A stretch of 64,000 nucleotides of DNA from Staphylococcus phage S6. A program made the position numbers and the translations under genes. Positions 22,854-44,147 of this stretch are shown here, one piece after another. Below the pieces are notes generated by a model. That model saw only the letters and a program-made list of their open reading frames with translations, was not told the DNA's origin and did not search any database. The stretch lies in sequence record LC680885.1; one strand, given 5' to 3'. Within the stretch, counting starts at the first letter, position 1. Each line of letters opens with the position of its first letter.

Positions 22854-24023
22854 ATGTCAAATTTAACTATGCAAGAAAAAGACTTAATTATGATTGAAAA
22901 TAAGTATAATAGATTTTTAGATAAAAAGGAAAAGATAATGAATAAAGAAACAGACTTTATTAAAATTGCATTTGAAGAATTAATGGACTTCATTGTACAT
23001 TTTGGTCATAATAAATTCTTTAAATCAGACACAATATTTTATAGATATTATGATGGAATGTTAGAGAATTATAAAATAGAATTAAATAAAATATCTAAAG
23101 TGGAAGATGATTTAGTACTAACGTATTTAAATAAAATTATTAATGATACTGATAAAGTTGAATTCTATAATAACATGAAGAAAATTTCAGAAAGTTATAG
23201 TAAAGAAAAATTAATCGTATCTATATCATATATAAAAGCTTTGGACTTCTATATACACATGATGCGAAATGAAGAATTAATGAGTGATATGGGATCTCTT
23301 ACAGTTCATCCTTACGATTTTAATAAACGATTAATAAGTGAATATAAAAAAGATAATATATTTTGGAAAAAACTAAGTGATGAAGAAAAGTCAAATGCAA
23401 TTCAAATGTCTAATATATATTTTGAAGGTATTGAAAATAAAGAAATTGGTAGATTTACCACTGAACATATAAACAGTGAAAAAGAAGGAACTGCATTTAA
23501 TTTTAATATAAATACATTTCATAAATTCTTTGATCAATTTGTATCTTTGGATATAGCTTATACGGATGGTTTAATATTTAATTTAATGATGAATAGTAAT
23601 ATCAATAAATATTATGAGAGATACTATAAAGAAATAGATCATGATATCTTCAATGCTAGTTATATTTCTGATAAATATGAATATGAAAACTTAGAAAAAG
23701 ATAAATTTTTAAAAACTTTAAATCGTATAGATATGTTTTATGATATAAATGTACCTTTATATATTTATAATAGTGAAGAACCATCAAATAAAAAATACTA
23801 TAATTATCTAACTGCTATGAAGTCTTTTGCTTTAAATGATTTGGTTAATCGTTATTATGATTCTTATGAATATATAGAATATTTTAGCGAAGTTAATGTC
23901 AATGATTCTTTCACGTTAGATATGTTAAGTGACGATGATGAAAGTGAATCAAATTATTTTGAAGAATTGTTTAAAAAAATAAAGAAAGAAAATGAAGAAA
24001 GACAATGGTTACAAGCTTTTTAA
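22854..24023 (+). CDS. Hypothetical protein
   Basis: SD acaggagtgaataggatATG. Confidence 0.6.
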   Translation: MSNLTMQEKDLIMIENKYNRFLDKKEKIMNKETDFIKIAFEELMDFIVHFGHNKFFKSDTIFYRYYDGMLENYKIELNKISKVEDDLVLTYLNKIINDTDKVEFYNNMKKISESYSKEKLIVSISYIKALDFYIHMMRNEELMSDMGSLTVHPYDFNKRLISEYKKDNIFWKKLSDEEKSNAIQMSNIYFEGIENKEIGRFTTEHINSEKEGTAFNFNINTFHKFFDQFVSLDIAYTDGLIFNLMMNSNINKYYERYYKEIDHDIFNASYISDKYEYENLEKDKFLKTLNRIDMFYDINVPLYIYNSEEPSNKKYYNYLTAMKSFALNDLVNRYYDSYEYIEYFSEVNVNDSFTLDMLSDDDESESNYFEELFKKIKKENEERQWLQAF

Positions 24024-24056
24024 AAATGAATTAAAAAGATAGAGAGGAGAAAATTT

Positions 24057-24242
24057 ATGACATTTTTAATTGGTATCTTAACTATTATTTTAATTTGTTT
24101 AGTGATAATAGGAGTGTTTTTATTTGTATCAGGTCTGATAAGTTTGTTACTTTCAACAAGTAATTTTGAAGAAGATATAATAACAACGAGTATATCAGGT
24201 TTATTTGCCATCATATTCTTTCTTATACTGTCATCGTTCTAA
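24057..24242 (+). CDS. Small membrane peptide, paralog of 24277..24504
   Basis: SD gagaggag. MTFLIGILTIILICLVIIGVFLFVSG parallels MFALLGILAIIFLLLIFIGLPLFVMG. Confidence 0.5.
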   Translation: MTFLIGILTIILICLVIIGVFLFVSGLISLLLSTSNFEEDIITTSISGLFAIIFFLILSSF

Positions 24243-26523: not shown

Positions 26524-26970
26524 ATGAAATATTATAAGGTTAATTATAATGGTATATTGAAAATATTGAATCTAGATGATTTTGAAGATGATAGAATTAT
26601 TGAAACACTTAGTAATATTGAGTTATATTTAAAAGAAGATGAAGAAATTAGATTATTGGATTTATTTAAAAAGCCAACTATAGCAATGGACACTCGAATT
26701 ACAAAAGAAAGAGATAACCTTTATATGAATGGTCATCTCTTTTTAGAAGTTGAGAATGCATCATGTAAACTATGGAGTTACCATATTAATTTAAATGGTG
26801 ACGAAACATTAAATGAAATATATGAAAGGATATATAACGGATACGATAAAATTTTCTCTTTTAATAAAATGAGAGAAGATGGTCTATTATTTTTATATGA
26901 ATATGAACATTATACAGAAATATCTGAAAAAGAATATAAAGAAAATAAGGTTAAAGAAAATTTTAAATAA
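26524..26970 (+). CDS. YK-tail family member A1 (MKYY... ...SEKEYKENKVKENFK)
   Basis: Conserved N-terminus MKYYK.N..GI and C-terminal tail shared with 13 other ORFs. Confidence 0.6.
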   Translation: MKYYKVNYNGILKILNLDDFEDDRIIETLSNIELYLKEDEEIRLLDLFKKPTIAMDTRITKERDNLYMNGHLFLEVENASCKLWSYHINLNGDETLNEIYERIYNGYDKIFSFNKMREDGLLFLYEYEHYTEISEKEYKENKVKENFK

Positions 26971-26988
26971 AAAAGGAGATTTTAAATT

Positions 26989-27441
26989 ATGAAATATTAT
27001 ATTTTAACACAACAGGGGATTGCTGAAGTTTTAGGTATTGATAGTGAATCGGTTTATTGCTATAGAAATTTATTTAGAGATGATGAATTATATTTAAAAG
27101 AAGATGAAGAAATTAAATTTTCAGAAATTATTACTAATCAAACACCGGATATAGAATACAAAGTTGTTGGAACAAATAAAGATACCGTAACAGTGATAGC
27201 TTATATGGAAATAGATTTAGGTGAAGGAGATTATCATCAAATTGGATCTTGCAGAATGAAATTAGATAAAGATAGAACTCTAGAAGAAGTATACAATATT
27301 GTATATGAGAAAATGTCCAATAGAACTTTTTCATTCAATAAAGCTAAAGAAATGGGTATATCTTTATATGAAGAGAGTGATTATGAAGAAGTATCTAAAA
27401 AAGAATATAAAAAATACAAAGTAGAGAATAATTTTAAATAA
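26989..27441 (+). CDS. YK-tail family member A2
   Basis: SD aaaaggagattttaaattATG. C-terminal tail SKKEYKKYKVENNFK. Confidence 0.6.
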   Translation: MKYYILTQQGIAEVLGIDSESVYCYRNLFRDDELYLKEDEEIKFSEIITNQTPDIEYKVVGTNKDTVTVIAYMEIDLGEGDYHQIGSCRMKLDKDRTLEEVYNIVYEKMSNRTFSFNKAKEMGISLYEESDYEEVSKKEYKKYKVENNFK

Positions 27442-27461
27442 TGGAATGAGTTGTTATTGTT

Positions 27462-27941
27462 ATGGAAAAATATTATAGATTAACTTTAGAGGGTGTTAGT
27501 TTTATTTTAAATGATTGTGAAGAAAACGATATAGTTAAATCAACTTATAATGAAGATGAAAATTATGTACATTTAGAATCTTTATTAAATGTAGGAATGC
27601 CTTATGAAACTATATATTTTAAAGATAGACATAAAATAGTATTTAAAGAAAATGAAAATATATTCAAGACATTGATAAATTCAATTAAAAATAAATATTA
27701 TGACTTTGATGATAAAAATATGGAATTTCAAGTAGGCATTGGTGATGATGAAATAAAGGTCAAATCACCGATGCCAGTATTTTCTAAAGTGAATATATTT
27801 AATTTTAAAGTTAATAAAGAAATGGACATTATTGATTTTATGGACAATTATAAAATTAATGTATTAATTAAAGATAAGCATTACATTGAAATTACTGAAA
27901 AAGAATATAAAAATATTATAATTAAAAATACATTTAAATAA
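27462..27941 (+). CDS. YK-tail family member A3
   Basis: Tail TEKEYKNIIIKNTFK. Confidence 0.55.
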   Translation: MEKYYRLTLEGVSFILNDCEENDIVKSTYNEDENYVHLESLLNVGMPYETIYFKDRHKIVFKENENIFKTLINSIKNKYYDFDDKNMEFQVGIGDDEIKVKSPMPVFSKVNIFNFKVNKEMDIIDFMDNYKINVLIKDKHYIEITEKEYKNIIIKNTFK

Positions 27942-27957
27942 TAAGGAGATTTTATAA

Positions 27958-28416
27958 TTGAAATATTATGAATTTAATAAAAAAGGAATTATTAAAATAT
28001 TAGGATTAGATACAGCTTATTTAAGAGAAGATGAAGATATTTTTAGAGAAGGAAATCTTTATTTAAAAGAAAATGAATCAATAAAAATAAAAGATATTAT
28101 AACAAATAAAAAAGATATGAAATTTAATTGCAGTCTTTATGAAGGATCTGAAGATAGCTCATTAATGAAAGCTAATTTAACTTTCAGACATGGGTCAGGG
28201 CAACTTTTATTGAATATTGAATATATTGATTTAAAAGAAATAAAAGATCACACTGTTGAAGAAGTTTACAAATACGCTAAAGATTTAGTTTTAAATAAAA
28301 CATTTTCTTTTAATAAAGCTGAAGAGCTTGGTATATGTTTATATGAAGGAAAAGAATATGAAGAAATTACTGAGGAAGAATATAAAAAATACAAAGTAGA
28401 AAATACTTTTAAATAA
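27958..28416 (+). CDS. YK-tail family member A4 (TTG start)
   Basis: aaggagattttataaTTG. Tail TEEEYKKYKVENTFK. Confidence 0.55.
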   Translation: MKYYEFNKKGIIKILGLDTAYLREDEDIFREGNLYLKENESIKIKDIITNKKDMKFNCSLYEGSEDSSLMKANLTFRHGSGQLLLNIEYIDLKEIKDHTVEEVYKYAKDLVLNKTFSFNKAEELGICLYEGKEYEEITEEEYKKYKVENTFK

Positions 28417-28436
28417 TGAAATGAGGTGTTATTGTT

Positions 28437-28886
28437 ATGGACAAATATTATAAATTAACAGCGGAAGGTATATTTGATGTTTTCAAATTAGATAAAAAAC
28501 ACATTATATTCCCAGAAGATAAAAATACAATAATAGATTTCAGATCAAAGGAAGAACGTATAGAGAAAATTAATGAACTTATATACTTTAAAGATAATCA
28601 AGAAATAACAATAAACTCATTATCTAATTTAACAGACAATATCGTAATAGATAAATCAGGTTCTAAATATACATTTAACCATTTAATAGAAATATCATTC
28701 ACTACTTTTAGTCATAAAAAAAGATATAACAAAACAATCAATGTACCGAATGTATTTAAAGGAACTGTAAGAGAAAATAGTAGTAGAAGTGCCTTAGATA
28801 TACCGATAGATATCAACAATATTGATAAAATAGAATTAACATTTAAAGAATATAAAGATCTAGTAATAAAAGAAACTTTTAAATAA
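28437..28886 (+). CDS. YK-tail family member A5
   Basis: Tail TFKEYKDLVIKETFK. Confidence 0.55.
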   Translation: MDKYYKLTAEGIFDVFKLDKKHIIFPEDKNTIIDFRSKEERIEKINELIYFKDNQEITINSLSNLTDNIVIDKSGSKYTFNHLIEISFTTFSHKKRYNKTINVPNVFKGTVRENSSRSALDIPIDINNIDKIELTFKEYKDLVIKETFK

Positions 28887-28902
28887 TAAGGAGATTTTAT
28901 AA

Positions 28903-29352
28903 TTGAAATATTATAAATTAAATAAGGATGGTTATATTAAATTTTTAGGGTTAGATGTTTTGCCTGGACTTAAAACCTCAATTGTTGAAAAAGAAATAAA
29001 AAATAAAAACTTCATTGTCAAATATTGCAATGGAGCAGATTTTTGTTTTACATTAGATGAAATTAATAAAATGAAAAACAAAGATATTTACCCTAAACTT
29101 GGATTTGAAAGTCTAACTGAAAAAGTTAATCATGAAATAGAAAATAATCCAATAGTATTTGTTAATAGAAAATATGAAGATGCTAAAGCTTTAATTCATG
29201 TAGATTTAATTATTAATAATGAAGAAACTACATTAATGACTATGCCAAGATTTAATATTAATTTTTTAAATCATAATTTGTATATGGAACACTTTGATGA
29301 AATAACAGAGAAACAGTATAAAAATATTATGGTAAAAGATTCATTTAAGTAA
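28903..29352 (+). CDS. YK-tail family member A6 (TTG start)
   Basis: Tail TEKQYKNIMVKDSFK. Confidence 0.55.
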   Translation: MKYYKLNKDGYIKFLGLDVLPGLKTSIVEKEIKNKNFIVKYCNGADFCFTLDEINKMKNKDIYPKLGFESLTEKVNHEIENNPIVFVNRKYEDAKALIHVDLIINNEETTLMTMPRFNINFLNHNLYMEHFDEITEKQYKNIMVKDSFK

Positions 29353-29929: not shown

Positions 29930-30574
29930 ATGCATTTAATAAACTTTCAAAAAAGGTCTATGAATAGTTATAAGAAGAATTTAAACACAATTGTACTTTT
30001 CATAGATTATGATAAAAATATTTTCAACCAAATTAATAATCAATTAGTTATAGATGTATTAGGTAATGATACTATAAGATTAAATAATGCTAATTATTCA
30101 TTAATGTTAGATGAGAAGATTTTTAGTTCTGAAAGGACAACAATTGATTTCTATAATAAAATAGTAAATAATGATATATTAAATATTATTAAAGAAAATA
30201 TATCTAATGTAGATAATTATTCTAAATTAAAAGAAATCAATAATATGACTGATAGTGAATTTAATGATATTATTAATAAAGATAATTTATTTAAATGTCA
30301 AAATAAATACTTCAGTATGAATAAAATACCTTATATAGAAAAAGAAATACCTGAAAGTTTTTATCTAGATCATTTTAAAGAGATTAATTTAGATTTTATA
30401 TTTGAGAAGCTTTTTGAAGAGAATAGAGAAGATGAAGAAAAATTAAAGTACGTTTATACTTTAGCTGAATTATTTCTAACACTCAAACAAGGTAAGAATA
30501 TATTTTATAATTATAATAAAGAGGTAGATAAGAAATATTATAGATCTATATTTATAAATTCTTTATTTAATTAA
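29930..30574 (+). CDS. Hypothetical protein
   Basis: The start is uncertain. The track uses 29909; ATG 29930 is also possible. SD is weak. Confidence 0.4.
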   Translation: MHLINFQKRSMNSYKKNLNTIVLFIDYDKNIFNQINNQLVIDVLGNDTIRLNNANYSLMLDEKIFSSERTTIDFYNKIVNNDILNIIKENISNVDNYSKLKEINNMTDSEFNDIINKDNLFKCQNKYFSMNKIPYIEKEIPESFYLDHFKEINLDFIFEKLFEENREDEEKLKYVYTLAELFLTLKQGKNIFYNYNKEVDKKYYRSIFINSLFN

Positions 30575-30599
30575 TATGATAAGAAAGGAGAGAAATAAT

Positions 30600-30893
30600 A
30601 TGAAGAAAATATACGGATTTAAAATAAAATATAATAAAAAAGTGGTAGATACTTTCACTTTTGAAAGTTTTGAAGAAGCTATGAATAAACTAGAATTATC
30701 ATTATTAGAAATTTATGACTCAGAAGATTTTACAACTATGCAATTAATTTTAAACACATATGACATTGAAGAAATTAATGAAGATAGTTTTAAAGATAAA
30801 TTAAGACTAAATCATCTTAATCACATTAAGAATTTTAGTATTGAATTGTTTTCTAAATATATTAACAATAATAAGGAAGAAGGAATTGCGTAA
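30600..30893 (+). CDS. Hypothetical protein
   Basis: SD aaaggagag followed by ATG 30600. The track start 30576 lies upstream of the SD. Confidence 0.5.
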   Translation: MKKIYGFKIKYNKKVVDTFTFESFEEAMNKLELSLLEIYDSEDFTTMQLILNTYDIEEINEDSFKDKLRLNHLNHIKNFSIELFSKYINNNKEEGIA

Positions 30894-31108
30894 TGTTCGA
30901 GGAAAGTAAAGTACCATTTTCATTTATTTATAAAGAAACTAAATACTTCTTACACAGAAGAAATATTAAGAATTTCCCTAATGGAGATTCTGAATTCTTA
31001 TTGTATGGAGATGAAAATGGGAAGTCATTCATAATAGAAGAAAGTAAATTAGAAAACTTAATTGAACAACATGAAGTTGAAGTATCTTACGAAGAAGATA
31101 TTATTTAA
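30893..31108 (+). CDS. Hypothetical small protein
   Basis: ATG overlaps the upstream stop (gcgtaATG). Confidence 0.45.
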   Translation: MFEESKVPFSFIYKETKYFLHRRNIKNFPNGDSEFLLYGDENGKSFIIEESKLENLIEQHEVEVSYEEDII

Positions 31109-31112
31109 ATAT

Positions 31113-31123
31113 ATATTATTAAA
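31113..31123 (+). promoter_or_regulatory. TATATTATtAA variant motif
   Basis: Precedes conserved hairpin copy 4. Confidence 0.3.
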
Positions 31124-31125
31124 TT

Positions 31126-31163
31126 GAGGTAATGACATACAATTTGTCATTACCTCTAATATA
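31126..31163 (+). repeat. Conserved hairpin element, copy 4
   Basis: gaggtaatgaca-tacaatt-tgtcattacctc-taatata. Confidence 0.7.
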
Positions 31164-31189
31164 TTAAACAATCAAAGGAGAAAACGATC

Positions 31190-31573
31190 ATGAAGAAATT
31201 TTTAGTATTACCATTATTATTCGTTTTATTATTAACAGGGTGCTCTCAAGCTGATAAAGTTAGTCAGAATATGTCTGAAGAGTCAGATAATTTTAATGTA
31301 GTTAGAAAAGTAACTGTCATTAATGCAATTAAAAATGACATAATATTCCAAATGTCTGGACGTATGTCTATTAAAGCAGATAATGAGGATAACCAATTAG
31401 AAATAGTTGTAGAAAATGAAGATGGCAAATATCAGAAACATATCATTGGTTTATCTGATAATGTTTCATATACTGTTGAAGATGTTACAACTAAAAATGT
31501 AAGTAAATATCAATATGAAATTAATTATAATCCTAAAATGTGGATCCCTGCAAAACCAGATTATAAAGATTAA
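31190..31573 (+). CDS. Lipoprotein
   Basis: Lipobox LLLTGC|SQ. SD aaaggagaaaacgatcATG. Confidence 0.65.
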   Translation: MKKFLVLPLLFVLLLTGCSQADKVSQNMSEESDNFNVVRKVTVINAIKNDIIFQMSGRMSIKADNEDNQLEIVVENEDGKYQKHIIGLSDNVSYTVEDVTTKNVSKYQYEINYNPKMWIPAKPDYKD

Positions 31574-31598
31574 TATAATAGAATGGAGAGTATGATTT

Positions 31599-31895
31599 AT
31601 GTCTAAGAAAAAGAAATTAGAAAAAAGACTTAATGTAAGAATTAATCAAGAACAAAAGAAAGCTATTTTAAAACGTGAAGATATCGATAGAATGGATTTT
31701 GAGTTCATTACATTAGATAAAGAGAAACATGATGAAGAAGAAAAATTTGATATCAAAGTAAAATCTAACGATAAGTTTTCTCTAATTATCATTATTAAAT
31801 TCTTTTCTAAATTGTTGAATTTTAGTATTAAAAGAGATAAGAAAAAAGAAGATATAAAAGACGGTAATGAAGATTCTAATTTAGATAAAGAATAA
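31599..31895 (+). CDS. Small basic/acidic Lys/Glu-rich protein
   Basis: SD aatggagag. Confidence 0.5.
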   Translation: MSKKKKLEKRLNVRINQEQKKAILKREDIDRMDFEFITLDKEKHDEEEKFDIKVKSNDKFSLIIIIKFFSKLLNFSIKRDKKKEDIKDGNEDSNLDKE

Positions 31896-31902
31896 TAAAA
31901 AT

Positions 31903-31948
31903 GCCATAATACACTTAAATTGTGTATTATGGCAAATTATTTATTTTT
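31903..31948. terminator. Bidirectional terminator between convergent genes
   Basis: Stem gccataatacac/gtgtattatggc, flanked by a T-run on the plus strand (aaattatttattttt) and an A/T-run on the minus strand. Confidence 0.65.
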
Positions 31949-32243
31949 CAGGTTTAAAACGGTCTTTAAGTCTAGGATATAGACGTAGATGCGCTTTACG
32001 AGTAGGATCTGTAACAACAATTTGATTTGTTCTAGGATTTCTACGTTTACGCATATCTTCAGGTTTAACTTCAAGGACACCAATTTCAGGGATAATAGTT
32101 TTAGTTTGATCAGCATCATTTGCAGATTCAACAATTATTTCTATCATCTCATTATAAGCATCAACTAGTTCTCTTTGTGTTAATCCAGTACGTCTAGACC
32201 ATTCTCTAAAGAAGTGTTTTTGATCTTGAATTTGATTTAGCAT
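31941..32243 (-). CDS. HU/IHF-family DNA-binding protein (histone-like; TF1-like)
   Basis: GLTQRELVDAYNEMIEII...IPEIGVLEVKPEDMRKRRNPRTNQIVVTDPTRKAHLRLYPRLKD matches the HU beta-arm region (R-x-G-R-N-P-x-T). This is the only minus-strand gene within the plus-strand block. Confidence 0.75.
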   Translation of the reverse strand: MLNQIQDQKHFFREWSRRTGLTQRELVDAYNEMIEIIVESANDADQTKTIIPEIGVLEVKPEDMRKRRNPRTNQIVVTDPTRKAHLRLYPRLKDRFKPEK

Positions 32244-32325
32244 TTTATTAGTTCCTTTCCATATAATATATTTTTAATTTTTTTAGAAAATTGTTAATAT
32301 TTTACTAGCTTTTTTCTAAATTTTA

Positions 32326-32334
32326 TGATATAAT
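32326..32334 (+). promoter_or_regulatory. Extended -10-like element TGaTATAAT upstream of the RNAP beta-N/beta'-N operon
   Basis: tatgatataat lies ~100 nt upstream of TTG 32435, in a divergent intergenic region. No TATATTATAA motif on the plus strand here. Confidence 0.3.
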
Positions 32335-32434
32335 ATTGTTATGGAATTTCATAGTTGTAAAAAAATAATTTTTTGCAATAACTTAAATTTTTATATGGTT
32401 TCGAATTTTTAATTATAAGGAGAGTCAGATATCG

Positions 32435-34057
32435 TTGGGTAATTATTTAAGAAAAATTACGAAGAATATACAAGATGAGGTCAGTACAAAAGAGTCATTT
32501 AATGAGGATGTAATATACTTTAGGGAGAATGAAAACCTAGAAGATATTATATCTGATATTTACAAATCAGTAGAATTTATTAAAGGCGTAAAATTCATTG
32601 ATTGTAAAGTTGTTCCTCCAAGTGAAGTTTATGAGTACAATCAAATGACAGACAAACAATTTAAAGCAAGAGATTTTAGAAAAATCAACGTAGAAGAATC
32701 AAAACTATTAGAAGTTCAAATTACTGTAGAATTTGAATCAGCTGAAGGGGAAAAAGAATTATACACACATAAATTAGATTTCCCTGAACTTATAGAAGGT
32801 CAGTATTATTATATTAATGATAATAAGTTCTTCCCTATCTTACAATTAGCTGATACTGAATTCTATAAACCTAAAGCAAGTACAGTAGTAATGAAAAACT
32901 TATTACAACCATTATCAGTAAATGGTTCTAAAAAAGATGAACTTATTGATGATGATAAGAAAATGCCTAAGAAGTTAAGAGGTAGAACATTATACTTAGA
33001 AGTATTTAATAAAAATAAACCTGTTCCAGCATTTTTATTCTTTATTGCTAAAATGGGTCTAGATGAAACATTTGAATTCTTAGATATTAAAGAATATTGT
33101 GAATTAGTAGATACCAACGATGAAAAAGATGATGAACACTACTATTTTAGAATTAATAATAAAATAACTATTCAAGTTGATAAAGAATGGTTAGATCAAG
33201 ACGATAGATATAGAACTTCTATGGTCTTATGTATTAAAGATTTATTTAAAGGTATGAGAGCAGGATTAGATAAAGTATATGATAAAGAATTCTGGCTTAA
33301 GAATTTAGGATCTGTATTTAGTGGTTCTACTAACGTTGACACTAAAATTGAAAAATCTAATTCTATGATTTTATCATTTGATAGAATTTTAGATAGTCGT
33401 ACTAAAAATATTTCTAGATTAGATCCAGAAGATAAAGAATCAACTTATCATGTAGTTAAATACATGTTTAAAAACTTTGATAATCTTAATTTATTAGATA
33501 ATACAGATTTAGCTAATAAACGTTTAAGAGTATTAGAATACTTAACTTATCCACTGAATAGAAAGAACTCTGATACATCTTATCGTATGATTAATTTCAC
33601 AGATAAGAAACGTACAATTAAAAATCTTAAAGGATTATTCTCAGGTGTACCTCGTGATTTCTTATTAAAAACTATAGGAACATCTGAAGGAATTAGATAT
33701 TCCAATGCAGTTAATACAATTGACTTATTTACTAGAATTCTTAAAATGACTAAAGCAGGTCCACAAACTGCTGTTGATACTAGTAAACCATCTATTAGAA
33801 CTATTAATATCAATAATACTTATTTCGGTAGAATTGATTTAATAGCAACATCTTCAAACAATCCAGGTATTACACGTACATTAACACCATTCTGTGAGGT
33901 TAAAGATCCTGGTGAGAATGGTTCATTCTATTTTGAAAATAAACCTAACATCAGAGAAAATATTGACACAGATAATTTAGATAAACTAGAGAAAGAATCT
34001 GAAGACAATGAAGTTGTATTAGATATTAAAGAAATTGTAGAAGAGGATGACGAATAA
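32435..34057 (+). CDS. Multisubunit RNA polymerase beta subunit, N-terminal fragment (split beta)
   Basis: [25 protein letters not shown] resembles beta [46 protein letters not shown] resembles [31 protein letters not shown] resembles [20 protein letters not shown]. TTG start with SD aaggagag. Confidence 0.7.
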   Translation: [540 protein letters not shown]

Positions 34058-35367
34058 TGGCTAGATTTTTACTTAAGAATAAAGACTTATCAAAATTACC
34101 AGTAGTAACAAATCATGAATCAATTGATAAGAAAGGTGATTTCACTGAAGACGGTATCTTCAGTGAGAAAATCTTTGGACCTGATTCAGATGTAGATAAT
34201 ATTACAAATGAAGCTATAGTTTATTTAGGTAATAACTATATTATTACACCTTTAGGATATGACAGAATTAAAAAATTAATAGGTAGAAAAAGATTTGCTG
34301 AAATTATTAGTTCTGAAAAACCTATTGATGAAAATGGTAATGTAATTGAACCAGAAGATGACCATAATTCATATATTGGTTTAGTTGAATTTAGAAAGAA
34401 CTTCTTAAAGATTCTTAAAGAAGAAGTTAAACGTGATAAACGTAAAACTAAAGATTACAATAGAGTTGTTCAATGGTATTTAAATGGAACATTATTCCAA
34501 AATTATGTAACTGTATTTAGTCCTAAATTAAGACCGGCTACAGTTAATAAAGCAACTAAGACATTTAGACATTCAGAAATTAATAAAGAATTTAATTTAT
34601 TAATTGCTCATAGTAATAGTCTTAAAGAATTAGATGAACATTATACAGATGATTCAGTTGAACTACAAAAGTTAAACCTACTTAATAAAATTCAAGATGA
34701 CAACATGAATATCTATGATCGTATTATCAATGAAAACATTAAAGGTAAAATGGGTACTATTCGTAAATTAATTATGGGTAGTCGTGTAGGATATTCAGCT
34801 CGTTCAGTAATTGTTCCAGCTCCTGATTTAAAATTAAATGAAATTAGAATGAATTATACAATCTTCTTAGAAATATACAAACCACTATTAGCTAATTTAA
34901 TGTATGTAACGGAAAATATTCCATTACCTAAAGCAGAAGAAATATTAGGTAGAGCTTTAGATAACTTTAATCCTAAAGTATATAAATATATGAAAGAATT
35001 AGTTAACAAAACTGAAGGTGGAATGAGAGTAATTTTGAACCGAAATCCATCTATCTCAGAATCATCAGTTCAAATATTAAAAATTAAAGATATCATTAGT
35101 GATATTGACTCAGCTGTAGTAGGTATTAGTAATAATATACTTGCAGGTATGGGTGCTGACTATGATGGAGACACATTGAATATTATAGCTCTCTTCTCAG
35201 AAGAGCAATATGATATGTTAAAAGTACAAGATCCAGTCAATCAATTAATATCATATAATGATGGTCTATTTAATAGAACTTATTCACTTAATAAAGACTC
35301 ACAGATTGCAGTTTATTTATTAAATAATCCTAAATCAAAAGATGTAAGTATAAAAGCTAGTAAATAG
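34057..35367 (+). CDS. Multisubunit RNA polymerase beta' subunit, N-terminal fragment (up to ~70 aa past the catalytic DFDGD)
   Basis: DGIFSEKIFGP resembles beta' DGLFCARIFGP. GSRVGYSARSVI resembles GKRVDYSGRSVI. GADYDGDTLNI resembles NADFDGDQM. ATG overlaps the upstream stop (translational coupling). Confidence 0.8.
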   Translation: MARFLLKNKDLSKLPVVTNHESIDKKGDFTEDGIFSEKIFGPDSDVDNITNEAIVYLGNNYIITPLGYDRIKKLIGRKRFAEIISSEKPIDENGNVIEPEDDHNSYIGLVEFRKNFLKILKEEVKRDKRKTKDYNRVVQWYLNGTLFQNYVTVFSPKLRPATVNKATKTFRHSEINKEFNLLIAHSNSLKELDEHYTDDSVELQKLNLLNKIQDDNMNIYDRIINENIKGKMGTIRKLIMGSRVGYSARSVIVPAPDLKLNEIRMNYTIFLEIYKPLLANLMYVTENIPLPKAEEILGRALDNFNPKVYKYMKELVNKTEGGMRVILNRNPSISESSVQILKIKDIISDIDSAVVGISNNILAGMGADYDGDTLNIIALFSEEQYDMLKVQDPVNQLISYNDGLFNRTYSLNKDSQIAVYLLNNPKSKDVSIKASK

Positions 35368-35374
35368 ATTTTTT

Positions 35375-35410
35375 AGAATAACGGTCTTATCAGATCGTTA
35401 TTCTTATTAA
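35375..35410 (+). terminator. Terminator hairpin after beta'-N
   Basis: gaataacggtc...gatcgttattc followed by ttattaaat. Confidence 0.45.
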
Positions 35411-35435
35411 ATAAATATGACTGGAGACATTGACC

Positions 35436-36068
35436 ATGAACAAAAGACAAAGAAAGAAATTAGAGAAGAAAAAATTAGAAGAACAAAGTAACGAAAAAAT
35501 TATAGATTTGCCAAAATTAAAAGAAGAAAAGGATGAAGTTAAAATGAATAAAGAAGTTAAAAGAGAAGGATCTTACAAGAAATTAACTAAGGAACAAGTA
35601 CATTATATTGCAGAATTAATTGACAAAGGACACGGAAACACTTATATTTTAAAAGAACTTAAAGCTAAGTTTGGTATTGACCGTAAATCACATTCAATCA
35701 CACATATTAGACGTGGTGAACATCCTACATTTAAAGCACTTACAGATGACAATTATCACTTTGCTGAAGTGGGATATCCTACATTTAATGAATACAAAAA
35801 GATTTTACGTGGAGAAGTTAAACCTAAAAGTAAAACACGTGTAAAAGCTGAAGAAAAGGTTAATAAAGTAAAAGAATCACCAGTAGTAGAAAAAGTATCT
35901 AATGTTACAGAAGAAAAAGTAGAACAAGTAAAAGAAAAAATGAGTAATATTCAAAAAGATAAAGAAACTGGTAAAGAATATCGTGATAAAGAAAGTATTC
36001 ATAAAGCAGGTAAACCTCAAGAAACTATCTTTGATAAGATTATCAAACGTGTTTTAAATATTTTATAA
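35436..36068 (+). CDS. Basic DNA-binding-like protein; HTH-like domain paralogous to 12445..13053
   Basis: Lys-rich N- and C-termini around a shared central domain. The track start is TTG 35430. Confidence 0.5.
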   Translation: MNKRQRKKLEKKKLEEQSNEKIIDLPKLKEEKDEVKMNKEVKREGSYKKLTKEQVHYIAELIDKGHGNTYILKELKAKFGIDRKSHSITHIRRGEHPTFKALTDDNYHFAEVGYPTFNEYKKILRGEVKPKSKTRVKAEEKVNKVKESPVVEKVSNVTEEKVEQVKEKMSNIQKDKETGKEYRDKESIHKAGKPQETIFDKIIKRVLNIL

Positions 36069-40547: not shown

Positions 40548-40606
40548 TTATGAAGAAAGATAAAGTATTAATATCTTTCTAAATAAATCAAATGGAGGAA
40601 TTTAAA

Positions 40607-40777
40607 ATGAAAAAGAATTTATTATTAAAATCAGCAGTGGGATTTGGGTTAGGTATTGTATTAGGTGTAGTAAGTAATAAAATTGATGAAATGGTTATGC
40701 AAAAGGAAATGGAAAAGCAAATCTTTAAAAGAGCTTCAGAAATAACTTTTGAACATCCATTCAATAATCTAAAATAA
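40607..40777 (+). CDS. Small membrane peptide, paralog of 41305..41409 and 42033..42227
   Basis: aaATGGAGGaatttaaaATG: the track start 40592 is the ATG inside the SD. KSAVGFGLGIVLGVV. Confidence 0.5.
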   Translation: MKKNLLLKSAVGFGLGIVLGVVSNKIDEMVMQKEMEKQIFKRASEITFEHPFNNLK

Positions 40778-40858
40778 AGGAGGAAAGAGGATAATTGTTT
40801 TAAAGACCTAATGGACAAGGATCAAGTTCATTAGGTCTATAATTTTCTATGATCCAAA
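40770..40858 (+). repeat. ~88 bp direct repeat, copy 1 (identical to 41402..41489)
   Basis: ctaaaataaaggaggaaagaggataattgttttaaagacctaatggacaaggatcaagttcattaggtctataattttctatgatccaa. Confidence 0.8.
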
Positions 40859-41195: not shown

Positions 41196-41237
41196 AAAGT
41201 TGAATTTGAAAAAGCGTAACGTAAGATATTTTAATTA

Positions 41238-41247
41238 TATATTATAA
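41238..41247 (+). promoter_or_regulatory. TATATTATAA motif inside the repeated AAAGCGTAAC module
   Basis: Same module. Confidence 0.35.
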
Positions 41248-41304
41248 TAATGAAGAAAGAGATTATCATTAACTCTTTCTAATAAATTAAAAGGAGAAAT
41301 TATT

Positions 41305-41409
41305 ATGAAAAACTTAGTATTGAAATTAGTAGCAGGATTTGGATTAGGAATTGTGATGGCAGTTGTTTTAGACAAGATTGAAGAAATGACGTTCTCTAAT
41401 TTAAAATAA
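41305..41409 (+). CDS. Tiny membrane peptide (34 aa), not in the track
   Basis: SD aaaaggagaaattattATG. LVAGFGLGIVMAVV. It ends ...SNLK, inside the 88-bp direct repeat. Confidence 0.4.
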   Translation: MKNLVLKLVAGFGLGIVMAVVLDKIEEMTFSNLK

Positions 41410-41489
41410 AGGAGGAAAGAGGATAATTGTTTTAAAGACCTAATGGACAAGGATCAAGTTCATTAGGTCTATAATTTTCTATGATCCAA
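41402..41489 (+). repeat. ~88 bp direct repeat, copy 2
   Basis: Identical to copy 1. Includes the last codons (...NLK*) of a small TM-peptide gene, a strong SD, a 10 bp-stem hairpin and the TTTCTATGATCCA motif. Confidence 0.8.
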
Positions 41490-42641: not shown

Positions 42642-43148
42642 ATGAAAAAATTATTAATGACATTAGCATCAATCGCTTTAATCGCAGTTATCGGAGCAGC
42701 AGGGATATTTGGTTATAGTAGTTTTAAAAGCTTAACAGTCAATAAAGAAGATAGTAAGACTGAAGAAGTATCTAAAAAGAAAGAAGACAAAAAAGAAAAG
42801 AAAGAACAAGAAGAATCAGATAATGTAGAAGTAAATCAACAACAAGATCAAACTCAAGAAGTAAATAATAATGAACGACAAAATCAAACTACAGAAGATA
42901 ATAATACAAATGTACAACAAAATCAACAACAAGAACCAGTAGTTGAAGAGAAAACTCAAGTAACAGATAATGAAGGTAATAATATAGATGATATGGATTC
43001 AGAAGAATTTATTTCTAAATATACGGAAGGAATGGATGAAGAAGAAGCTCAAACAGTAAAAGACATGGCTGAAGAAGATTCAGGATATGAAGATTTCTTA
43101 CGTGGACAAGTAGAAGCTAGACAAAACGGACAAGGCGGAAATTACTAA
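42642..43148 (+). CDS. Membrane-anchored Q/N/E-rich protein, paralog 1 of 3
   Basis: MKKLLMTLASIALIAVIGAAGIFGYSSFK signal anchor, then a low-complexity acidic/Q-rich region. Confidence 0.6.
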   Translation: MKKLLMTLASIALIAVIGAAGIFGYSSFKSLTVNKEDSKTEEVSKKKEDKKEKKEQEESDNVEVNQQQDQTQEVNNNERQNQTTEDNNTNVQQNQQQEPVVEEKTQVTDNEGNNIDDMDSEEFISKYTEGMDEEEAQTVKDMAEEDSGYEDFLRGQVEARQNGQGGNY

Positions 43149-43171
43149 TAAGAAGAAAAGAGTGAAATGAA

Positions 43172-43639
43172 ATGAAAAAAATCTTAAGTATTTTAACAGC
43201 GATAGCTTTAATCACAGTTATCGGAGCAGCAGGAGTATTCGGCTATAGTAGTTTTAAAGAATTAAATAATAGTAAAGATAGTCATAAAGTTGAAACAAGT
43301 AAAAAACAAAAAGAATCAGATGATAAAAATAACACTCAACAACAAGAACAAAATACATCAAAAGAAAACAACAATATCCAACAACAATCAAATGAAGATA
43401 GCCTAACAGAAAATATGGATGAAGAATATAAAAAACAACAGGAAATGTATGAAAGGCAATCAAAAGATGAAGCTCCAGAACCGGATTCTATAATTGGCAA
43501 CCCACCAAAAAATTATGAAACTCCAGAAAAAGATAAAATAACTATAAGTGAGTTAAGAGAAGTTTTAGGCGATGATATTGATGAAAGTAAAATTGATGAA
43601 GCAAAAGCGTCTGGCGAATATATTAATGATGAAGAATAA
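43172..43639 (+). CDS. Membrane-anchored Q/N/E-rich protein, paralog 2 of 3
   Basis: MKKILSILTAIALITVIGAAGVFGYSSFK. Confidence 0.6.
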   Translation: MKKILSILTAIALITVIGAAGVFGYSSFKELNNSKDSHKVETSKKQKESDDKNNTQQQEQNTSKENNNIQQQSNEDSLTENMDEEYKKQQEMYERQSKDEAPEPDSIIGNPPKNYETPEKDKITISELREVLGDDIDESKIDEAKASGEYINDEE

Positions 43640-43670
43640 AAAATAAATAAAAAGAATAGAGGAAAATAAA

Positions 43671-44147
43671 ATGAAAAAATTATTAGTATCATTATCAATC
43701 TTAGCAGTAATTGTAGTATTAGTAGCGGCAGGTGTGTTTGGATATTCAAAATATAAAGAAGTAGAAATGAAACAACAGAATTTAGAAACACAATTAGAAG
43801 AAAAAAATTCCAATGAGCAAACTAATGAAAACGATCAACAACAAGAACAAGCAAATACAAATGAATCTCAAAATCAAGAAAATAGTTCAACAAAAAACAA
43901 TAACGACAATAAACAAAAAGTATCTAGAGACAATGTATTTGACTATGCTTTAGCTGCAGTAAATGAAGTAGGTGACGCTGATTTAATGAAATTCCAAGAA
44001 CCTTCTTACAGTGATGGTGTATGGACAATTGACACTAATAATAAATCTGGTTCAGGATCTAATACTATAAAAGTATACGATGATGGCTGGGTACAGATAT
44101 ATGATGGATCTGGTGAAATAGCTCATGAAACAAAAATAGAACTATAA
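43671..44147 (+). CDS. Membrane-anchored Q/N/E-rich protein, paralog 3 of 3
   Basis: MKKLLVSLSILAVIVVLVAAGVFGYSKYK. Confidence 0.6.
   Translation: MKKLLVSLSILAVIVVLVAAGVFGYSKYKEVEMKQQNLETQLEEKNSNEQTNENDQQQEQANTNESQNQENSSTKNNNDNKQKVSRDNVFDYALAAVNEVGDADLMKFQEPSYSDGVWTIDTNNKSGSGSNTIKVYDDGWVQIYDGSGEIAHETKIEL

Follow-up and report, generated by a model that had tools for sequence, protein, structure and literature searches.

We analyzed a 64,000-nt stretch of DNA from Staphylococcus phage S6 (record LC680885.1; the whole stretch is called the window below) around a gene of the HU/IHF (DNABII) family that is encoded on the minus strand at 31941..32243. The open reading frame (ORF) consists of 100 codons and a stop codon, and its product is a basic protein of 100 aa (12.0 kDa, pI 9.6), the same ORF and protein sequence as given in the original prediction. 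On the same strand, the Shine-Dalgarno (SD) sequence AAAGGA (32253..32258) lies 9 nt before the ATG, and in phage MarsHill a ribosome-binding site is annotated at the equivalent place. Further upstream are a predicted 5' leader of 86 nt (32244..32329, minus strand) and a conserved intergenic block (32305..32368) holding a predicted late promoter (32328..32340, minus strand). Downstream of the stop codon, a 13-bp hairpin (31902..31934) occupies the junction with the convergent genes.

Bases 30500-35500 are 98.6-98.7% identical to the Staphylococcus jumbo phages PALS_2 and vB_SauM-UFV_DC4, and 82-97% identical to MarsHill, Madawaska, LY01, SA1, PB50, AH12, and Machias. By sequence, the window belongs to a MarsHill/PALS_2-like Staphylococcus jumbo phage, a relative of the Bacillus phages AR9 and PBS1. 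The Staphylococcus jumbo relatives have both virion and non-virion multisubunit RNA polymerases (RNAPs) (bioRxiv 10.1101/2020.12.14.422802; PMC10638138), in agreement with the earlier proposal of a jumbo phage with its own RNAP. Deoxyuridine (dU) has been measured in the DNA of phage S6 (bioRxiv 10.1101/2020.12.14.422802), the DNA of the Staphylococcus jumbo relatives behaves like that of AR9 and S6 (bioRxiv 10.1101/2020.12.14.422802; PMC10638138), and uracil is presumed to stand in place of thymine across the MarsHill/PALS_2-type phages. Because dU was shown in S6, a dCMP deaminase is encoded (PALS2_255), and a dUMP hydroxymethylase was not found in the MarsHill/PALS_2-type phages, the non-canonical base is very probably dU rather than hydroxymethyluracil (hmU). 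Thus, the suggestion of modified DNA holds insofar as the DNA is very probably non-canonical, whereas its hmU variant does not.

The assignment of the protein to the HU/IHF family is secure and already on record. The match to the Pfam profile PF00216 (Bac_DNA_binding) scores 37 bits (gathering score 22.4; E 4e-9) and extends over positions 4-89 of the 90 in the profile, and PHROG 379 ("DNA binding protein") matches with E 3e-8. In a phmmer search against solved structures the best match is bacterial HU (5LVT, Lactococcus lactis, E 0.0046), followed by IHF-alpha. The arm segment MRKRRNPRT aligns to AREGRNPQT of 5LVT, and so shares the RNP motif with the intercalating proline and basic residues; R67, R68, N69, and P70 of the arm do not vary within the clade. 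A homologue identified in the Logan contig SRR25936516 (5001-5294; 72% identity) keeps the RNP proline and lacks the second arm proline (TDPT replaced by TEDT).

The AlphaFold2 (AF2) model contains helices at residues 2-19 and 23-40, five strands, and a helix at 90-95, that is, the a1-a2-b-arm-a3 topology of HU. Its confidence is low (predicted local distance difference test, pLDDT, 63.5), since a homologue search of 5.8 billion proteins returned just 11 matches, all of them clade members, and the input was a shallow alignment of 10 sequences. In a Foldseek search of the model against the PDB, ranks 1-36 are all HU, IHF, Hbb, or TF1 structures (best E 1.9e-3, TM score ~0.5). The ORF is unbroken in 9 phage genomes and 2 metagenomic relatives, that is, in every relative examined, and its ratio of nonsynonymous to synonymous substitution rates (dN/dS) is 0.04-0.25 at dS up to ~0.9; it is under purifying selection.

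The original prediction had called the protein HU/TF1-like. The HU part of this description is borne out by the alignments and by the fold. The TF1 part is not: the TF1 structures of phage SPO1 (1WTU, 1EXE) are missing from the phmmer matches at E<=1, and in the Foldseek list they occupy ranks 26 and 36. Judging from these comparisons, the protein is no closer to TF1 than to ordinary HU or IHF. SPO1 TF1 is an abundant type II DNA-binding protein that prefers hmU-DNA. In both systems an HU-family protein is encoded by a Firmicute phage with replaced thymine, but the proteins are not specifically related, the genome considered here is a dU and not an hmU genome, and SPO1 relies on host RNAP with phage sigma factors and has no phage RNAPs. 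Bacterial HU proteins (L. lactis 5LVT, Staphylococcus aureus 4QJN) have the same fold and the same R-N-P arm motif with intercalating proline, and they are similar in size and basic charge; they differ in that identity is only ~20-26% and that the phage protein has a 5-residue N-terminal extension, FFxEWS in helix 1, and an arm tip that has diverged. The phage gene is not a recent acquisition from the host, since the match of S. aureus HU reaches only E 0.18.

The closest known counterparts are the "DNA-binding proteins" of MarsHill (gp270), Madawaska, Machias, and PB50, which are 87-99% identical and lie at the same locus. PALS2_087 and MarsHill gp270 are 99-100% identical to the protein studied here, and the latter (99% identical) is annotated as "DNA-binding protein; HU family; HHpred 6N2L", with the terminator annotated as well. 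No difference of substance separates these loci from the window; promoter and temporal class are left unannotated in those records. A more distant counterpart is provided by g103 of AR9/PBS1, annotated in AR9 as "DNA binding protein HU". It belongs to the same family (~98-100 aa) and is likewise a lone opposite-strand gene in an early block, between the NAD-ligase gene and the gene for the beta-N subunit of the non-virion RNAP (nvRNAP), with AACA-N6-TA before it and a long hairpin after it. Between the HU and nvRNAP beta-N genes, AR9 has the Ugi gene (g104) as well as an early promoter, both of which are absent from the Staphylococcus phages. The AR9 leader is 162 nt, compared with the predicted 86 nt here, and timing has been measured only in AR9.

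The gene had been described as the only minus-strand gene within a long block of plus-strand genes, and the MarsHill annotation agrees: gp228-gp269 and gp001-gp042 are all on the plus strand, and gp270 alone is on the minus strand. The PALS_2 annotation adds two tiny and doubtful minus-strand ORFs of 73 and 59 aa, so that the HU gene is the sole credible minus-strand gene in ~55 kb. In the window, small minus-strand ORFs are seen in gaps between plus-strand genes at ~24020-24214, 40588-40818, and 41235-41450. Two genes are annotated as minus-strand in PALS_2 (PALS2_072 and PALS2_110), one of which appears to match the ORF at ~24020-24214, and MarsHill annotates neither; the ORF at 41235-41450 overlaps a strong plus-strand early promoter at 41238. 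All three small ORFs are probably spurious.

The unusual orientation is retained in relatives. The lone opposite-strand HU gene is present in all Staphylococcus relatives and in the 72%-identical Logan relative. In the Listeria phage LPJP1 an HU gene with 34% identity is again alone on the opposite strand and divergent from nvRNAP beta-N, and the HU gene of the Bacillus phage BpSp (gp181) likewise stands alone on the opposite strand. In AR9, g103 runs opposite to its neighbours, between the ligase block and g104 (Ugi) and g105 (nvRNAP beta-N). The divergence of the HU gene from nvRNAP beta-N is observed in all compared phages except BpSp.

The HU gene ends at a hairpin that had been proposed to be a bidirectional terminator. 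The hairpin is real. It folds with dG of -21 and -22.9 kcal/mol (z-scores -6.3 and -6.4) and contains 5 G-C pairs. A terminator scan flagged it on both strands (2 found versus 0.3 expected), and across 8 genomes the pairing is complete (100%), 3 pairs showing compensatory changes and 0 being broken. On the minus strand TTTTTATTATT follows the hairpin directly (tail UUUUUAUUAUU), and the plus-strand tail begins with AAA. Since the U run follows at once in the HU direction and three A's come first on the plus strand, the hairpin looks like a strong terminator for the HU mRNA and a weaker one for the convergent early operon. Long hairpins also stand right after the HU stop codon in AR9 and LPJP1. 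The Logan relative (L011) retains the late-promoter block and has a hairpin with three compensatory pair changes. In addition, the 7-nt loop (31915-31921) is inverted between close relatives, being AATTTAA (minus strand) in the window and in LY01 and TTAAATT in PALS_2 and MarsHill, with identical stems, a pattern suggestive of loop inversion or of recombination mediated by the hairpin. A search of the locus against Rfam gave no credible match, the sole hit being a sub-threshold chance match of mir-450 on the hairpin.

Upstream of the HU gene, a stretch of intergenic DNA is unusually well conserved. Read on the minus strand from 32343 to 32305, it has the form CATAACA(A/T)TATTATATCATAAAAyTyAGAAAAAAGCTAG and varies only at the three marked positions among six genomes and the Logan relative. 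The whole block (32305..32368), which reads CTAGCTTTTTTCTAAATTTTATGATATAATATTGTTATG on the plus strand and includes TGATATAAT at 32326..32334, is almost invariant in the six-genome alignment and in the Logan relative, the three variable positions being given as 32344-32346. The neighbouring ORF has dS ~0.8, so that its synonymous sites are about half saturated, yet the intergenic block is nearly unchanged. Within the block, AACAATATTATA at 32340..32329 fits, on the HU coding strand, the late consensus AACA-N6-T(A/G) that was described for the non-virion RNAP of AR9 (PMC5312081). The AACA-N6-TA element is the same in the six Staphylococcus phage genomes and the Logan relative, with the sole change inside N6.

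A published MEME search of the Staphylococcus clade did not find the late motif (bioRxiv 10.1101/2020.12.14.422802). As a control, we assembled the whole PALS_2 genome and counted AACA-N6-T[AG] in intergenic DNA upstream of genes. The motif occurs 35 times in the orientation of the gene versus 6 times in the opposite one. It mostly stands 22-55 nt from the start codon, ahead of the genes for tail fibre, tape measure, lysin, and other large late-type genes. The PALS_2 late sites share two further features, a T after TA (25 of 26) and A or T at position -2 (24 of 26), and the HU site has both. Judging by these counts, a late promoter of the AR9 type, AACA-N4-WW-TA-T, is clearly used in the Staphylococcus clade.

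On a late-promoter matrix the HU site scores 7.2 bits, rank 114 of 537,424 positions. The AACA-N6-TA element also precedes the HU genes of LPJP1 (59-nt leader) and BpSp (51 nt), and in AR9 it coincides with a mapped start site: g103 is among the non-early start sites (Table S3), the start site being preceded by AACAaatataTA and the upstream sequence reading ...gtAACAaatataTA (PMC5312081). Because the AACA-N6-TA block is conserved, recurs at the counterparts, and matches the additional features of the PALS_2 late sites, it is most probable that HU, like its AR9 counterpart, is transcribed from a late promoter of the non-virion RNAP. The predicted promoter is AACA-ATATTA-TA-T (AACAATATTATAT), with the start at A 32329. 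A second AACA-N6-TA at 32295..32284, which would give a 41-nt leader, was tried as the main promoter and rejected: it is not conserved, its position -2 is C, its TA is followed by A, and its score is -5.1 bits. In the PALS_2 subclade it may provide an additional start site. The leader itself is unstructured, and a structured RNA was rejected at a fold z-score of -0.68.

The transcripts of AR9 give an indication of what such a gene may do. The FPKM (fragments per kilobase of transcript per million mapped reads) of g103 is 26.9, 7522, and 52105 at 5, 20, and 40 min (Table S4), and at 40 min just two other protein-coding transcripts are more abundant, with g103 exceeding the major head gene about 14-fold (PMC5312081). 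By analogy, we consider it probable that the HU protein is an abundant late DNA-architectural protein produced from a self-contained late cassette on the strand opposite to the early block. In this scenario, the non-virion RNAP would initiate at AACAATATTATAT and transcribe the unstructured leader with its SD sequence, the 100-codon ORF, and the hairpin terminator. The opposite orientation and the hairpin boundary would keep HU out of the early transcripts of the virion RNAP, so that the protein would be produced only after the non-virion RNAP exists. The product, as expected from its family, would act as a DNA-bending dimer without much sequence preference. If it accumulates as in AR9, very large amounts late in infection could coat, bend, or compact the newly replicated dU-DNA and thereby support late transcription, condensation, or packaging. 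A published functional study of the HU proteins of AR9, PBS1, or the Staphylococcus jumbo phages was not found in literature searches.

Several observations weigh against this scenario. The late timing is transferred from AR9 by way of its transcripts and the promoter motif, and the architectural role is suggested by family knowledge and by the AR9 abundance. The AR9 and window proteins share 22% identity (pairwise E 2e-9), and tblastn gave no AR9 match at E<1e-3; orthology with g103 is argued from family, synteny, and orientation. In DNA with 76% A+T, AACA-N6-TA is a weak motif, and the score of the HU site falls in the lower half of the training range. The predicted leader exceeds the usual 22-55 nt. 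The invariant block is at the same time a perfect extended -10 element on the other strand, so that conservation alone does not tell which strand is read. The low confidence of the structure model is a further point on this side.

Two other readings of the upstream region compete with the late promoter. The original prediction had noted an 8-mer, TATATTAT, on the minus strand (32263..32270) as an upstream motif of the HU gene; it is the core of the early promoter of the virion RNAP, which in AR9 has the consensus AAATATATATTAT-N6-G(+1) (PMC5312081). If the injected virion RNAP initiated there, HU would be an early gene. The exact core known from AR9 and MarsHill, the correct strand, and the AT-rich upstream flank speak for this (PMC5312081; bioRxiv 10.1101/2020.12.14.422802), but the following observations speak against it. 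The bare 8-mer is not enriched (43 copies in the window versus 41.7 expected). Fourteen copies, all intergenic and on the plus strand, carry the longer consensus TTTAAATA-TATATTAT-N5-TG-A, and a matrix built from these 14 clear sites scores them at 24-32 bits (17-30 in leave-one-out), with the next best position in the window at 10. The copy near HU scores -3.4 bits and fails the extended consensus (A)AATA-TATATTAT-N5-TG(+1), as it lacks the TG at the start site that is invariant in all 14. Nor is it some 35 nt upstream of the SD, as had been stated: rc-TATATTATAT (32270..32261) directly abuts the SD (GGAAAGGAAC, 32260..32251), 27 nt from the ATG, and the implied start inside the SD would leave a 13-nt leader, compared with 27-65 nt elsewhere. 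In the six-genome alignment the 8-mer is degraded in LY01 (TATATTAA), SA1 (TGAATTAT), and PB50 and AH12 (TAAATGAA), and it is absent in the Logan relative. A scan of the PALS_2 genome with the early matrix at a 12-bit cutoff gave 36 sites, nearly all clearly early and none adjoining the HU gene, and AR9 g103 is almost silent at 5 min. We therefore regard the motif as a chance match and early transcription of HU as highly improbable. The second reading concerns the opposite strand, where the original prediction had seen an extended -10 element facing the RNAP operon. The block 32305-32368 could, alone or additionally, be a host sigma-A promoter (TGATATAAT, plus strand) driving the nvRNAP beta-N/beta' operon, and its conservation would then be uninformative about HU. 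The element does exist as a perfect TGnTATAAT, invariant in all relatives, and the nvRNAP operon is devoid of a recognizable early promoter (best -2.3 bits; none at PALS_2 79173-85219), whereas in AR9 the corresponding gap holds the early promoter P104. On the other hand, TGNTATAAT occurs at chance frequency (17 in the window versus 14.2 expected), mostly inside genes, the -35 region is poor (TAGCTT), and AR9 early transcription needs only components injected with the virion and is assigned to the virion RNAP (PMC5312081). Moreover, the element is the reverse complement of part of the AACA-N6-TA block on the HU strand. The AACA, needless for sigma-A, is also invariant, and AACA-N6-TA recurs at the HU genes of LPJP1, BpSp, and AR9, where its reverse complement is not a -10 element. 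A host promoter as the explanation of the block thus seems to us unlikely, though it deserves consideration; the block may also be two-faced, serving the HU strand as a late nvRNAP promoter and the opposite strand as a host-type extended -10 element for the nvRNAP genes.

Given a late HU gene, its function could still differ from that of a general architectural protein. The protein may be mainly packaged in the virion, bound to the dU genome and injected to protect or organize the incoming DNA. Such a role agrees with the late and very abundant AR9 transcript, level with structural genes, and with the absence of any known Ung inhibitor from the dU phages of Staphylococcus and Listeria (PMC10303552). 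A precedent is the HU-like pA104R of African swine fever virus, described as a late structural protein (PMC12882912); this virus infects eukaryotes, the acquisition is unrelated, and pA104R resembles the phage protein as a viral HU-like protein whose expression is late, as predicted for the phage gene. However, HU is not among the 15 proteins detected in DC4 virions (an absence that also counts against the abundant architectural protein), although this proteome is so shallow as to be uninformative, and g103 bears no "virion protein" label in the AR9 record, where many other genes do. We find virion packaging as the main role improbable. Members of the DNABII family also have established site-specific accessory roles. 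An IHF-like factor acting, for instance, at an origin of replication, a pac site, or a site of recombination, rather than a general coat, is in line with such roles and with the presence of IHF subunits among the structural and sequence matches. The level of the AR9 counterpart transcript relative to the major head gene at 40 min fits a stoichiometric rather than a catalytic role, and a homodimer is expected because only one such gene was found; a site-specific factor is accordingly quite improbable in our estimate. A more specialized form of the architectural role is a dedicated uracil-DNA chromatin protein, which, produced in huge quantity, would coat the dU-DNA late and shield it from host uracil-DNA glycosylase and apurinic/apyrimidinic (AP) endonucleases, or act as a cofactor; in the latter version HU may help the non-virion RNAP to open and read uracil-dependent promoters on the template strand. 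Shielding would matter because no Ung inhibitor is known from the Staphylococcus and Listeria dU phages and because, in AR9, Ugi adjoins HU. This idea is speculative, and we assign it a low probability. The position of Ugi can be described more closely: in AR9 (L004 3338-3592), g104 lies between HU and nvRNAP beta-N, and this position is devoid of genes in the Staphylococcus and Listeria relatives (32244-32434 in the window).

The transcription of the nvRNAP genes themselves presents a separate question. In the beta-N/beta'-N operon region (32244-32434 and 32435-35367) there is no recognizable early promoter of the virion RNAP, the best score of -2.3 bits comparing with 24-32 for clear sites. 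This best candidate, a degenerate plus-strand promoter (TATAATAT-N5-TG at 32329), was rejected on its score and because SA1 and the Logan relative have variants at a core position. The nearest early promoter, at 31112, is upstream of the hairpin. Its expression may require read-through of the hairpin or the host-type promoter (TGATATAAT) facing the operon.

Further features were noted in the window. The 14 clear early promoters, all on the plus strand, are at 1901, 2693, 16681, 19539, 29368, 31112, 37147, 39199, 39504, 40538, 41238, 45197, 49295, and 50494. Five of them (39199, 39504, 40538, 41238, and 50494) also have the start of the leader in common (TATTATAATTATGAAGAAAGA), as if a promoter-leader cassette had been duplicated in this region, where the ORFs are very small. 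The window also contains two tandem arrays of paralogous small ORFs, six of ~150 aa at 26524-29352, just upstream of the HU region, and three of ~160 aa at 42642-44147, with pairwise BLASTP E-values down to 1e-24.

In summary, the earlier observation is real in its main parts, but the regulatory interpretation given to it is wrong. Phages commonly encode HU homologues, and the annotation of this one is ordinary and largely known already from MarsHill and AR9. The additions made here are modest: a conserved late cassette, and a late-promoter consensus (AACA-N6-TA-T) recovered in the Staphylococcus clade. The odd orientation of the HU gene is a conserved trait of the AR9-like dU-DNA jumbo phages across three host genera, and it accompanies a cassette of late promoter, leader, ORF, and terminator. 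If the HU protein were specialized for uracil-DNA, this would bear on how these phages organize and protect non-canonical DNA.

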